From: an uncultured Chlamydiales bacterium
GTDB taxonomy: Bacteria; Chlamydiota; Chlamydiia; Chlamydiales; JAAKFR01
NCBI GenBank assembly: GCA_963699155.1
Contig: OY969414.1
Span: 2,059,757-2,123,756, forward strand
Reading direction: 5' to 3'
Length of the DNA: 64,000 nt
The position numbers and the translations under genes are program-made. Shown piece after piece: positions 36,102-41,870 of this stretch. Numbering within the stretch: position 1 is the first letter of the stretch; each line of letters begins with the position of its first letter. The notes beneath the pieces were generated by a model that did not search any database, had not been told where the DNA came from, and worked only from the letters and a program-made list of their open reading frames with translations.

Positions 36102-36983
36102 CTATTGATGAGCTGTTTTAGCCAGAAGGTGCTGGCTCAAGAAAGAGTGAATCTGGTTGGCAATTTCCTGGAGATGGGTTTCTAGGGCAAAATGGCCCGT
36201 GTCAAAGAAAATGACTTGAGCGTTCGGGATGTCCCGTTTATAGCTCTCTGCACCTTGAGGTAAAAAGAATGGGTCATTTTTTCCCCAAACTGCCAGTAAC
36301 GGGGGTTTATTTTTGCGAAAATAGTCTTGAAACTGAGGGTAGAGGGCGACATTGCTCGCATAATCAAGGAAAAGATCGAGTTGAATTTCATCATTTCCTG
36401 GTCGATTTAAAAGGAGGGAATCGAGGGTATAGCTCTCCGGCTCTACTAAGGTTTCATCCGCTACACCGTGAAGGTATTGCCACTTGACACTCTCAGGTTT
36501 TAGAAAGTCGCGAAGAGCTTGTCTATTTTCCGGAGTTTTTTCCTTCCAATATTTTTGAATGGGATTCCAGCCTGTGCTCAAACCCTCTTCATAAGCATTT
36601 CCATTTTGTGTGATGATAGCGGTGACACGTTCAGGATGTTTCAGTGCCAAGCGTAGACCGACAGGAGCGCCATAATCAAAGATGTAGAGAGCATACTCTT
36701 TCAGTTGAAGGGTCTGAGTGAAATGTTCGATGATCTGAGCCAGATTGGCAAAGGTGTATTTGAATTGCGAATTGGGGGGGCTGTCAGAAAATCCAAATCC
36801 TAAGAGATCAGGAGCAATGATGTGGTACTGGTCAGCCAGTAGAGGGATCAGTCGGCGAAACATATGTGAGGAGGTCGGAAAGCCGTGCAGCAGCAATAGA
36901 GTAGGCAATTTAGGATTTCCCGATTCGCGATAAAAGATACGATGGCCATCCACAACTACCGTACGATTATAAATTGTGATCAT
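36102..36983 (-). CDS. Alpha/beta hydrolase (epoxide hydrolase/dehalogenase-like)
   Basis: LLHGFPTSSHMFR, nucleophile elbow FDYGAPVG, WGKND, TGHFALE; ATGA overlap with the DUF2063 gene. Confidence 0.92.
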   Translation of the reverse strand: MITIYNRTVVVDGHRIFYRESGNPKLPTLLLLHGFPTSSHMFRRLIPLLADQYHIIAPDLLGFGFSDSPPNSQFKYTFANLAQIIEHFTQTLQLKEYALYIFDYGAPVGLRLALKHPERVTAIITQNGNAYEEGLSTGWNPIQKYWKEKTPENRQALRDFLKPESVKWQYLHGVADETLVEPESYTLDSLLLNRPGNDEIQLDLFLDYASNVALYPQFQDYFRKNKPPLLAVWGKNDPFFLPQGAESYKRDIPNAQVIFFDTGHFALETHLQEIANQIHSFLSQHLLAKTAHQ

Positions 36984-37840
36984 TGTATTAACCATTTTTC
37001 ATTCATCCATTCTTGTATCCACCGGTCTAGAGACGATTCAGCATCCGAGCAGATCTTTTTTTCTTGCTTTTCCAAATAATCGCATATTTCATTAATACTT
37101 AATCCTTTACTGATTAAATCCAGGAATATCCATTGCGCTTCCTCAACTTCTTTATATAAAATTTGATTCTCACCTGTGCGAAAGAGCAAAAAGAAATAAT
37201 TCCTCTCCTTCATCAAAACTGGAAAAGCTGACTCCAACCAAAACTCCACTTCCTCTTTTAAAAGAGCAGCGCGCAAAGAAAAAATATCGAAAGGAAAATG
37301 AAAGAGTTTTAGGTGAGGTTGTAGGGTCAATTTTTTGGAAAGCAGATCAATGGATGGTGGAAGATATGAGGGTAGAGGAGCAAAAAAAAGAGCCTGATAG
37401 GCCCAATCGACCGCTGCTGTTGCCGCAATGAGAACTTTATCTTCAGCTTTGTAATATTGATCAATCCAGTGAGACAATTGATTACCCAATTGGGCAAGAG
37501 ACCAGTGACGTGAAGGATAATCTGTGAGAAAGGGCATTCCAATTGTATGGTTAAAATCAGAATATCCAAACAATCGAGTGAGAGCAGGAAAGTTCTGATG
37601 AAGAATGGAAAGCAGACGCCACCAATACTGCTGATTATAAATTTGGATGCGTTGAGCCGATGAAAGTTTTGCGTTAGGGAGAATAAAATCTTTAGCCTCA
37701 TCTACCATAAACCTTCCAGAAGGGGAGATCGGATTCATCTGACTATTAAGGTCGACGGGTCTTGTAATAATGGCCGCAAACCATTTCTGAATTAAAAATA
37801 ATTCAGCAGGAACTTGAGGATTTCTGGTTGACACACTCAT
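36980..37840 (-). CDS. DUF2063-family MNIO partner protein
   Basis: QRIQIYNQQYWWRLLSIL...FPAL...YPSRHWSL...VDWAY; directly downstream of DUF692. Confidence 0.88.
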   Translation of the reverse strand: MSVSTRNPQVPAELFLIQKWFAAIITRPVDLNSQMNPISPSGRFMVDEAKDFILPNAKLSSAQRIQIYNQQYWWRLLSILHQNFPALTRLFGYSDFNHTIGMPFLTDYPSRHWSLAQLGNQLSHWIDQYYKAEDKVLIAATAAVDWAYQALFFAPLPSYLPPSIDLLSKKLTLQPHLKLFHFPFDIFSLRAALLKEEVEFWLESAFPVLMKERNYFFLLFRTGENQILYKEVEEAQWIFLDLISKGLSINEICDYLEKQEKKICSDAESSLDRWIQEWMNEKWLIQ

Positions 37841-39243: not shown

Positions 39244-41427
39244 TTATTTTTCCAGGAAAACGTAGGAACCGTCCCATGAATCGGGAGGCGGGTTCTGCAA
39301 GAATTGGGCGCAGCGAGCGTGCAGAGTATGGCTTGGCCCATCGGAAAGCTGATCTTGGAGAAGATGCATGGCATCCTCGAAGTGACGTTCACGATAGGCC
39401 TTGAGCGCCTCTTCATACTTGGAGAGGATGGGACTCATTTCCGATTTTTCCCCATTCTTGCCTATCAGCTCATAGACTCTAATTTTTTCGCTCTCTCCTT
39501 TGAGTATGATGAAGTCCAAGAGGCGAAAAGCAAAGTTCTCACGAGCTGCTTCATAGATGCTTTCACTCACGATAATAGAGGTGCCATAGTATTTGTTGAG
39601 GCTTTCTAACCGGGAAGCGGTGTTCACTCCATTGCCAAGAGCAGTGAAGTTGAGCCGATCGGGCGCTCCAAAATGGCCCACCAACACCTGATCTTTGTGC
39701 AGACCAAAGCGCGTCTCGAAATGGGGAAGGCCATGCCACTGAGGTGAGACGAATAGTTCTTCAAGCGCTACTCTACAATCGAGGATAGCTTGACAAGCGA
39801 TTTGAGCATGGTTTGGTAAAGGAGTTGGCGTATTCCATAGGGCCATAATCCCATCGCCAATGTATTTGTCTATGATACCTTGCCGGCGGTTCTGGATGAC
39901 TTGCGTCATGACCTTGAGGTAACTTCCGAGCGCCGTGGCCAATTCATTGACGGGCAGCTTTTCCACAAGAGAGGTGAAGTTGCGGATATCTGTGAAGAGT
40001 ATGGAGATTTCCTGAACTTTTCCTCCGATAACGGGATCTTTCTGTGACTGAAAAAGCTGTTTCACAAGTTCTATGGGGACATATTTACTCATCGCGCGCA
40101 TGGCAGTCTTGGCAAGCTCAAGACCTGTGAGGATGGTAAAGACATCCTGGAAAATGGAGTGGGGCTGAGTGGGTATGAAATCAAAATTGTGCATCTTCAA
40201 CGTTTCATCGATGATCTTTTGTTGCTCCCTTTTGAGAGAGCGCTGCACAAAGAACCCACACAAGCCTATAGAGCCGATGATGCTGCCTGCAATAAGGAGA
40301 AGTCGGTTGCGCATCTTTTGGAGGGGCCCGACATAATAGGACTGTGGAACAACGATCCCCAAGATCCAGCCTTGAGAGTCCTCAATTTCACGAAAGGTAA
40401 GAAGATAGGTTTTACCCTGGTATTCAAATTGAGTGGACTGCAGTGGAGCTTCTTGAGTGACTAATTGGAGAACCGGAGCTTTTAAGGCGATCTGCACCTG
40501 TTGTGGGGCATTTGTCGACAGATAACGCAGATTGTCATCTATTAGCCTGAGCGATTCTTTAGAGCTCAGACGCGTGATGAGTTCTCCAGAACGATCCGTA
40601 ATGAAAATCAGGTGTGGGTCTTCTGGATCTTGCGGGACGAGTTTGAACTGGCTGATCCGGTCGATTTGGTTGTAAAAGAGACCGACACGGAATACGCCCA
40701 GAAAGTGGCCTTTAGAGTCTGTGACAGCGCGTTGAACACTCACCTCTACCCTGCGTTGACTTTCAGGGAGGTCTTTGTCTATTTGCGACCAGTGGAGGTC
40801 GCTCCAAAGACTTTGACCCACAAATTCCTTATTCGCCGGCGTCTTAAAGGTTAGATCTCTGGTAGGATCGACGATCGATTTCGCTTCTCCTGGGACAAAT
40901 GGTCTACCGAATAGCTCGTTTTTAGCCGAACGCCTCCGTAGCTGTGAGACCCATTTCTCATCCTTTTGATAAATGAAGAGCGTGTCGATGGAAGCAGAAT
41001 CTTGATGGGCTGTTCTAAAAAGAGTCATTTCCCCCCGACCAGTAGGCGCCAGCAGGATATTACCCTCTGCATCGTATCCGATCTTTTCGCCAAAGGTGAG
41101 GGAGATTTCGGAACAGTTCTGGTTTGTGAGAATCGAGGAGAAGAGAAAGGTTTCCAGTGCGATAGGGTCTTTCGGATTAAAGACTTCATGGTCAATCTTC
41201 ATCTGAAAATTATTTTCGACTTGGCTAAGCTGGTTGAGGTAGGCAGTGACTTTATCTGCAAATTCACGGCTAGCAGCAGCCCGCAGGTTGTCGGAGGACT
41301 GGAGCACAGAATCCCTAGAACTCTTCAGAAGCAGATAAAACAGAAGGCTGAGCAGGAGGATGATCCCTAAGAGGCTAAAGCCTAAGAGCTGCGGGAGTGT
41401 TATTCGGCCTTTTTTCGACTCAACCAT
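39244..41427 (-). CDS. Membrane-bound class III adenylate cyclase with extracytoplasmic (Cache-like) sensor region
   Basis: TM-large loop-TM; LFTDIRNFT, IDKYIGDGIMA, FTALGNGVNTASRLE; C-terminal PPPDSWDG. Confidence 0.92.
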   Translation of the reverse strand: MVESKKGRITLPQLLGFSLLGIILLLSLLFYLLLKSSRDSVLQSSDNLRAAASREFADKVTAYLNQLSQVENNFQMKIDHEVFNPKDPIALETFLFSSILTNQNCSEISLTFGEKIGYDAEGNILLAPTGRGEMTLFRTAHQDSASIDTLFIYQKDEKWVSQLRRRSAKNELFGRPFVPGEAKSIVDPTRDLTFKTPANKEFVGQSLWSDLHWSQIDKDLPESQRRVEVSVQRAVTDSKGHFLGVFRVGLFYNQIDRISQFKLVPQDPEDPHLIFITDRSGELITRLSSKESLRLIDDNLRYLSTNAPQQVQIALKAPVLQLVTQEAPLQSTQFEYQGKTYLLTFREIEDSQGWILGIVVPQSYYVGPLQKMRNRLLLIAGSIIGSIGLCGFFVQRSLKREQQKIIDETLKMHNFDFIPTQPHSIFQDVFTILTGLELAKTAMRAMSKYVPIELVKQLFQSQKDPVIGGKVQEISILFTDIRNFTSLVEKLPVNELATALGSYLKVMTQVIQNRRQGIIDKYIGDGIMALWNTPTPLPNHAQIACQAILDCRVALEELFVSPQWHGLPHFETRFGLHKDQVLVGHFGAPDRLNFTALGNGVNTASRLESLNKYYGTSIIVSESIYEAARENFAFRLLDFIILKGESEKIRVYELIGKNGEKSEMSPILSKYEEALKAYRERHFEDAMHLLQDQLSDGPSHTLHARCAQFLQNPPPDSWDGSYVFLEK

Positions 41428-41870
41428 TCTATGAGATAGTCCAGTGAGATTTTACCAGGGCCGAAAGCAAAGACAATGAGAGCCGCTAGCAAATAGTTAA
41501 AAGGGAGCTGCATGATAAAATTTTGAGGATCATTCCAAACATTTAATAATGCTGCGAGATTGTCTGTAACAAGAGCACCAATTAATATGACAATTAGGGG
41601 AAGGGTAACCAATCGTGAGGCCAAACCAAGGAATAGACAGAGTCCGCACACAAATTCGATAGTACCCACTAAATAGGCATTAAAATGAGGGAATGGGATG
41701 TGCAAAGAGGCAAAATAATCGCTCACATTGGAAATGTTGTGCAACTTACCCCATCCTGAGAGCACCAATGAACCTCCCCAATATAAGCGCATGGCCAATA
41801 ACAAAATGGGTTGGAAAAATTCTCCACACTTCGTAAGAGCTGAATAAAATTTTTTGGCAAAATCGATCAT
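41400..41870 (-). CDS. DoxX-family membrane protein
   Basis: LAMRLYWG...SGWGKL...EFVCGLCLFLGLASR...GPGKISLD. Confidence 0.92.
   Translation of the reverse strand: MIDFAKKFYSALTKCGEFFQPILLLAMRLYWGGSLVLSGWGKLHNISNVSDYFASLHIPFPHFNAYLVGTIEFVCGLCLFLGLASRLVTLPLIVILIGALVTDNLAALLNVWNDPQNFIMQLPFNYLLAALIVFAFGPGKISLDYLIEWLSRKKAE

Follow-up and report, generated by a model that had tools for sequence, protein, structure and literature searches.

Positions 36102 to 41870 of a 64,000-nucleotide stretch (the window) of the complete 2.4-Mb genome of an uncultured Chlamydiales bacterium hold six genes built around a maturase of the MNIO (DUF692) family and its putative secreted precursor peptide. By sequence, the three-gene core, bufABC, is a Buf2-type bufferin operon and not an oxazolin operon, although it is not a strict member of the class on the six-cysteine test. 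We consider it probable that this is a chlamydia-specific form of the Buf2 operon acquired by transfer, that the adjoining doxX and adenylate cyclase genes are accessory partners, with the cyclase serving as a periplasmic sensor, and that the hydrolase gene at the downstream end is a passenger. The six genes, in 5' to 3' order on the minus strand, are as follows.

41400-41870, minus strand: doxX, a BufD/HvfX-like membrane protein of 156 residues (PF07681, 68 bits; NF050144, 65.6 bits, cut-off 80)
39244-41427, minus strand: membrane class III adenylate cyclase of 727 residues (PF00211, 64.7 bits; weak dCache_1 match, 24.3 bits, cut-off 45)
38728-39156, minus strand: bufA, precursor of 142 residues (NF050166 BufA2, 27.2 bits, cut-off 60)
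37803-38639, minus strand: bufB, MNIO (DUF692) maturase of 278 residues (PF05114, 343.5 bits; NF050167 BufB, 326 bits, cut-off 310)
36980-37840, minus strand: bufC, DUF2063 partner of 286 residues (PF09836, 50.4 bits; NF050145 HvfC, 34.9 bits, cut-off 142)
36102-36995, minus strand: alpha/beta hydrolase, haloalkane dehalogenase/epoxide hydrolase-like (PF00561, 134 bits)

The sequence and its list of open reading frames (ORFs) show all six reading frames to be intact and co-oriented, in the order and with the frequent overlaps that an initial annotation, made from the letters alone, had described, and Pfam and NCBIfam searches bore out its DUF692, DUF2063, and DoxX assignments. The doxX ATG lies on the stop codon of the citrate synthase gene upstream (4-bp overlap), doxX overlaps the cyclase gene by 28 bp and bufB overlaps bufC by 38 bp, while bufC and the hydrolase gene share 4 or 16 bp, according to which start is chosen. 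Gaps of 87 bp upstream and 88 bp downstream set bufA apart. The nearest named homologues are Chlamydiae, Parachlamydiaceae, and Chlamydiales records, in keeping with a chlamydial origin.

Class of the cluster

Related systems are described here from the accessible portions of the papers cited. The closest are the Buf2 bufferins (Buf_6/12Cys), such as Caulobacter vibrioides buf2ABC (PMC11626156; PMC12452194). With these the window shares the order bufA-bufB-bufC, a BufB-type MNIO that scores above the NCBIfam cut-off and has its His/Glu/Asp motifs in place, and, immediately following the MNIO, a DUF2063 (PME-type 1) partner. Its precursor, with a putative signal peptide, also shares the CxGxNxC...CxGxGxC module, in which all four central cysteines are conserved. 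No sigma factor or NrsF gene is present among the six, and Buf2 clusters are likewise described as free of sigma and anti-sigma genes (PMC12452194). Canonical Buf2 precursors have six (or 12) conserved cysteines, of which CysI and CysVI are probably joined by a disulfide and the central four lose 4.03 Da each (PMC11626156); the precursor here, in contrast, has five cysteines with none after CysV, and falls below the BufA2 cut-off. The apparent location of its module within a helical domain and the adjoining dCache adenylate cyclase are further departures from Buf2.

Two other classes fit less well. Buf1 (DUF2282) and gig operons resemble the window in combining an MNIO, a DUF2063 protein, and DoxX with Sec export, which is predicted here, and a proposed copper-buffering role, but their DUF2282 precursors carry four cysteines in another pattern, the precursor here has no Pfam match at an E value of 0.01, and its doxX lies upstream with the cyclase gene in between. 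Oxazolin clusters (HvfA/HvfB/HvfC of Haemophilus influenzae) share a related MNIO, a partner, a DoxX-like gene, and what is here a putative signal peptide; unlike theirs, this precursor has no EGKCG repeats, and the models for HvfB (PRK05409, 241.7 bits, cut-off 360), HvfC, and HvfX all score below cut-off. The initial annotation had left the cluster as bufferin/oxazolin-type; its bufferin half stands, as Buf2-like, and its oxazolin half does not.

A five-cysteine precursor

Although the ORF list begins bufA at a TTG at 39180, we prefer the ATG at 39156 because homologues and a GGGGAG ribosome site favor it. Read from there, the protein starts with what appears by eye to be a Sec-type signal peptide (a basic N terminus, a hydrophobic stretch, A-x-A at 26-28, and no lipobox), followed by a linker, three helices, the five-cysteine Buf2 module, and a C-terminal helix. 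The "Cys-rich" secreted precursor of the initial annotation has five cysteines (C85, C91, C97, C104, and C110) and not the six of canonical Buf2. All five are invariant across 69 homologues, including the central C91, C97, C104, and C110, whose register was set by comparison with other sequences. Among 69 chlamydial-type precursors, 66 match the module, and a cysteine after CysV is absent from 58 of the 66, lies within 20 residues in 7, and comes later in 1. At 77 non-chlamydial Buf2 loci the module is matched in 76 precursors, every one of which has CysVI (76/76), and a profile of the helical scaffold matched none of these 76. Counts that label precursors of family relatives "C6" include the lipobox cysteine.

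The AlphaFold2 (AF2) model of the precursor contains confident helices at 51-82 and 121-141, on either side of the module, and natural homologues that lack a module (P0058, P0059, L038, and L045) fuse the flanking helices directly. We infer that BufA is a chlamydial variant in which a five-cysteine Buf2 module has been inserted into a helical domain that would take over from the disulfide clamp. A fold search with the model returned no match with Z of at least 5 among 48,161 chains, a result that speaks for neither a known fold nor a novel one, and the best ESM Atlas match (0.81, in a Chlamydiota cluster) is a lead only.

In the model system BufA, BufB, and BufC suffice for biosynthesis and DoxX is dispensable (PMC11626156), and by analogy a periplasmic buffer with four thiooxazoles would be expected here. 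BufB, working with BufC, would oxidize C91, C97, C104, and C110, at 4 Da each, to 5-thiooxazole-type groups; Sec would export the peptide, and the free product may bind excess copper in the periplasm, for example inside a protist host. The helical domain would clamp both ends of the module in place of the CysI-CysVI disulfide, and the invariant C85 would stay unpaired, whether as a thiol, an additional site, or the link in a dimer. If so, the chlamydial precursor would show that the terminal disulfide can be lost once a helical domain surrounds the module. The likely periplasmic copper-binding product anticipated by the initial annotation is upheld as a prediction of this kind.

A different product was also considered: the scaffolded five-cysteine peptide could bind another metal, or could be a periplasmic redox or structural protein of the chlamydial envelope instead of a copper buffer. 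The missing disulfide and a domain foreign to other Buf2 precursors would suit such a role, as would the scaffold paralogues with few or no cysteines that adjoin MNIO genes in several chlamydiae, and the chemistry of Buf2 itself is only partly defined in the accessible text of PMC12452194. We nevertheless judge it quite unlikely, given a maturase that passes the BufB cut-off, the invariance here of the four cysteines that are modified in Buf2, and the protection against copper afforded by Caulobacter Buf2 (10.1101/2024.03.18.585515).

Precursor genes vary widely among chlamydiae. At L045 (1919-2725) and in L216, a protein of four scaffold repeats (a 274-residue ORF before the MNIO in L216) is encoded directly upstream of the MNIO gene; the L045 protein is free of cysteine, and the L045 MNIO is therefore left without an obvious substrate. 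At least two precursor-like genes are found at 17 of 64 chlamydial MNIO loci (several of L198-L231), some with extra GCG/CGG-type cysteine motifs in the linker or duplicated modules, reaching 504 residues. A second chlamydial precursor type consists of short lipoproteins with tandem CxGKT/NxC repeats, no helical scaffold, and a BufBC clade of their own (L332:6511-6789, L381, L382, and L331:4923-5108).

Origin of the operon

In the family to which this genome belongs, the ancestral site reads rluB-x-bufABC, often followed by lemA-htpX, and carries lipoprotein-type precursors. This genome has kept rluB, x, and lemA, and all that separates x from lemA is the remnant of a degraded bufC (C1:536827-536649), which best matches the same-genus copy along with others from the family. 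The intact genes in the window have other affinities. BufC is 38% identical to the same-genus copy versus 53-57% to the copies in G163, G179, and the metagenome locus L248, and the corresponding figures for BufB are 72% versus 80-83%. A combined BufB+BufC tree of 33 rows, chosen from 72 BufB and 59 BufC rows and with an outgroup that is not monophyletic, places the window copy with G163, G179, and L248 (support 100/100) and outside the 14 family copies (95/94). The approximately unbiased (AU) test rejects a tree in which the window copy is constrained to the family (p 0.00098). The BufB-only tree also shows the foreign grouping. GC content at third codon positions is 0.34-0.36 in bufABC, 0.52-0.60 in the flanking genes, and 0.53 in the cyclase gene.

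In three relatives the citrate synthase and FAD oxidoreductase genes that bracket the cluster are adjacent or almost adjacent, and in two others unrelated inserts come between them; because the gap is so variably filled, we take it to be an insertion site. On these sequence comparisons, the operon probably entered by transfer between these two genes and replaced the family's native lipoprotein-type operon. Loss of a native operon together with gain of a foreign one suggests that the function is under selection. The window doxX is a second, non-native copy on present, rough support: it falls outside the family doxX clade in a tree whose bootstrap values have not settled, and a native doxX lies at C1:1688531.

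The hydrolase gene can be separated from the rest. An analysis that takes all six genes as one unit and gives the hydrolase a tailoring or processing role would account for the overlap of the hydrolase start with the bufC stop; we hold this to be very unlikely indeed, as the hydrolase is present at 0 of 64 chlamydial MNIO loci and near 1 of 77 others (a distant 25% match, 4 kb away), and its orthologues (75-80% identity) sit in other contexts. Judged by its neighborhoods, the hydrolase is a passenger that overlaps bufC yet is not conserved with the cluster. The initial annotation had grouped the hydrolase with the cyclase as extra components and treated the six genes as a complete cluster. Across Chlamydiota the bufABC core does recur, as does the cyclase with such clusters in two phyla, whereas the six genes together form a mosaic at an insertion site and not one conserved operon.

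The edges of the inserted segment have features of their own. In the same-genus genome, citrate synthase is followed by a membrane-protein gene that has no tblastn match in this genome; here, at the 41867-43030 junction, doxX occupies that position, again with a 4-bp overlap. At 35049-35828, by the left edge of the insertion, a GC-rich element roughly 120 nucleotides long is present in inverted copies whose arms are 83-93% complementary; with 43 blastn matches in the genome, 24 of them at least 80 nucleotides long, it is a dispersed repeat resembling miniature inverted-repeat transposable elements or repetitive extragenic palindromes.

The adenylate cyclase and its link to bufferin clusters

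The cyclase consists of a transmembrane segment, a periplasmic domain of dCache fold, a second transmembrane segment, and a catalytic domain with intact motifs. Its catalytic residues are D480, K521, D525, T595, N602, and R606, which we take to be the two metal-binding aspartates, the substrate-binding Lys and Thr/Asp, and the transition-state Asn and Arg of class III enzymes; by these motifs it belongs to class III and is predicted to be active. Although Pfam dCache_1 stays below cut-off, an AF2 model (pLDDT 84) shows the double Cache fold between the two transmembrane segments, and Foldseek ranks ligand-binding domains of the dCache type highest (E 8e-10; TM-score, by query length, 0.47-0.55). 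In topology, fold, and catalytic motifs the protein resembles other dCache membrane class III cyclases; it differs in being part of a small distinct family (179 clusters, E up to 1e-30) that recurs with Buf2 clusters, and its sensor domain is 8-16% identical to solved dCache domains and had no plasmid match. The family is rare, with members in 8 of 400 other Chlamydiota (a count that leaves out two weak sensor-domain matches, E about 5e-4, in G240 and G252), 6 of 200 Chthoniobacterales, 3 of 300 genomes from the phylum of a Polyangiaceae genome, and 13 of 200 from that family.

An early reading in which cyclase, doxX, and hydrolase were all passengers, based on 0 of the 24 nearest loci, was dropped for the cyclase and doxX after wider sampling. 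When loci are chosen by the cyclase, an MNIO gene lies within 5 kb at 3 of 8 chlamydial, 1 of 6 metagenome, 4 of 13 Polyangiaceae-family, and 0 of 6 Chthoniobacterales loci. When the precursor is used for selection instead, the cyclase is present at 5 of 77 non-chlamydial Buf2 loci, all of them in Polyangiaceae or delta-proteobacterial records and all beside doxX, one being on the same contig as L370. These counts leave out P0003 (precursor, 69%) and P0063 (cyclase, 80%), for each of which the longest contig given is 73,234 bases. The arrangements are diverse: doxX-cyclase-bufABC in the window, bufABC-doxX-cyclase in G163, cyclase-bufABC-doxX in L248, the cyclase divergent from bufABC in G353, cyclase-doxX converging on bufBC in G121, and cyclase and doxX tail to tail in Polyangiaceae. 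As a control, cyclase-domain matches occur in 33 of 41 close genomes, yet only the dCache-cyclase family adjoins an MNIO gene, and an MNIO was present at 0 of 74 more distant cyclase loci, many of them short.

Co-occurrence at the genome level is complete in the genomes checked. BufB is encoded in 9 of 9 Chlamydiota with a family cyclase, this genome included (background 79/251, 31%), in 6 of 6 such Chthoniobacterales (background 24/121, 20%), and in 5 of 5 Polyangiaceae-family genomes in which the cyclase is unlinked. Fisher tests on in-sample subsets gave p values of 0.009 and 0.001, and overstate the association since they treat the samples as nested and take no account of kinship or genome size. 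The dependence runs one way, in that the cyclase implies BufB and not the reverse, which fits a sensor of something that the bufferin system makes or handles.

We therefore weighed what the cyclase might be doing beside these operons. In the reading that we prefer, doxX and the dCache adenylate cyclase are accessory partners that recur with Buf2 clusters, and the cyclase would most likely sense a periplasmic cue tied to the bufferin system and make cyclic AMP (cAMP), while being dispensable for biosynthesis. A narrower version, in which the whole dCache-cyclase family is a dedicated Buf2 sensor that reads the copper-loaded or apo peptide, or a DoxX-linked signal, in the periplasm and reports it through cAMP, is possible but somewhat doubtful. 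[quoted passage not shown] Bufferins are the largest MNIO RiPP family, and a cyclase never found without BufB in the genomes checked offers a concrete hypothesis for sensing.

Several results weigh against the overall reading. The precursor fails the BufA2 model and misses one defining cysteine, and its AF2 model is unreliable for the cysteine module (pLDDT below 60). The AU test on BufB by itself does not reject a native origin (p 0.746); there the free search was poor and the constrained tree scored higher, so we regarded this test as uninformative and used BufB+BufC. Among loci covered for 5 kb on both sides, an MNIO is linked to the cyclase at 1 of 5 chlamydial, 0 of 5 metagenome, 3 of 8 Polyangiaceae-family, and 0 of 5 Chthoniobacterales loci, and 62 of 64 chlamydial MNIO loci have no adjoining cyclase. 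Genome size and kinship could be inflating the co-occurrence. The sensor domain has three partly conserved His columns, of which the most conserved is Asp in this protein, and has no conserved Cys/Met copper site, which counts against its sensing copper directly. A CRP-type helix-turn-helix regulator was not found in the genome, where one stand-alone 140-residue cyclic nucleotide-binding protein was found.

A rival account is an ordinary Buf2 operon with hitchhikers, in which a cyclase captured once beside a doxX-buf cassette travels horizontally with it and has no functional tie to it. Most family copies are unlinked to an MNIO, including all six in Chthoniobacterales; the AU test does not reject a single origin for the linked BufBC of chlamydiae (p 0.39); sister genomes carry different inserts at the locus, an insertion hot spot; and other conserved genes occur in bufferin clusters at very low frequency, according to the accessible text of PMC12452194. 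A single capture is harder to reconcile with at least five gene orders in two phyla, or with trees that disagree within the chlamydiae, where the window cyclase groups with that of G121 (support 99) and the window BufBC with that of G163. Linked and unlinked copies also interleave in the cyclase tree, with seven changes, and BufB is present in every checked genome whose cyclase is unlinked, even if kin are not independent in the tests above. We regard hitchhiking as plausible but short of probable.

Alternatively, the real partner of the cyclase could be DoxX, through a membrane redox or thiol signal, with the bufferin link being indirect. The two genes lie 44-85 bp apart in five of the eight linked loci and overlap in the window, and L374 and L253 have cyclase and doxX with no MNIO in the DNA covered. 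In L248, L373, and L331, however, the cyclase gene is directly beside bufA and doxX is 2.4-4.2 kb off or absent, and most unlinked cyclases have no doxX nearby, which makes this account unlikely. The recurrent link between the cyclase and bufferin clusters is apparently unreported. The word "cyclase" occurs once in the accessible text of PMC12452194, in a reference, and nowhere in its accessible spreadsheets.

MNIO clusters across Chlamydiota

The survey does not support the idea that an MNIO cluster in a chlamydia is unusual in itself. An MNIO match was present in 25 of 41 close genomes and in 79 of 251 genomes across the phylum, and among the Parachlamydiales rows listed in Table S4 of PMC12452194, five of eight have an MNIO and DUF2063 with zero Buf2 precursors. 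The chlamydial precursor type may supply the substrate for the MNIOs of these five genomes, in which the published profile had registered no Buf2 precursor. The distribution is uneven, with MNIOs in 0 of 30 genomes of one family with 1.0-1.2 Mb genomes, probably Chlamydiaceae, versus 28 of 29 in another, and we read this split as a copper-stress trait of environmental chlamydiae. Of 67 chlamydial neighborhoods, 64 yielded an MNIO call, and these included a precursor-like gene in 56 and a DUF2063 call in 57; two of the loci are one contig, and an overlap filter dropped some genes. Our literature search, outside which most subscription papers lay, found no published work that links adenylate cyclase to MNIO clusters or describes chlamydial bufferins, and the accessible part of PMC13229535 held nothing relevant.

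A gene matching PF02578 (multi-copper polyphenol oxidase/PgeF-like) is found near the operon at 18 of the 64 chlamydial MNIO loci (for example, L045:4274-5008), which may be plain synteny. Some chlamydiae have a second, distant MNIO of about 40% identity (L333:6663-7493 and L380), and the one in L380 follows an EGKCG-type precursor, as in an oxazolin-like cluster.

Spacers and neighboring genes

The two gaps around bufA hold the following candidate control elements.

39157-39243, minus strand: AT-rich spacer that includes a ribosome site and a possible promoter for bufA (TTGCCT-16-TATTAT at 39229-39202)
38671-38704, minus strand: 13-bp stem-loop between bufA and bufB (inverted repeat I4)

Transcription of bufA from its own promoter is possible on this basis, although promoter-like matches across the region are at chance level (11 found versus 11.1 expected), as are those of a terminator scan. 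The stem-loop probably stabilizes or attenuates the bufA message, to judge from its sequence and position; the 88-nucleotide spacer that contains it has a predicted folding energy of -34.4 kcal/mol.

Downstream, a small HTH_37-like ORF at 35869-36093 on the plus strand, below cut-off and convergent with the hydrolase gene, is possibly an orphan antitoxin. On the other side, at 44051-45511 on the minus strand, an ankyrin-repeat protein is encoded upstream of mdh and is probably an effector-type gene product that is secreted.

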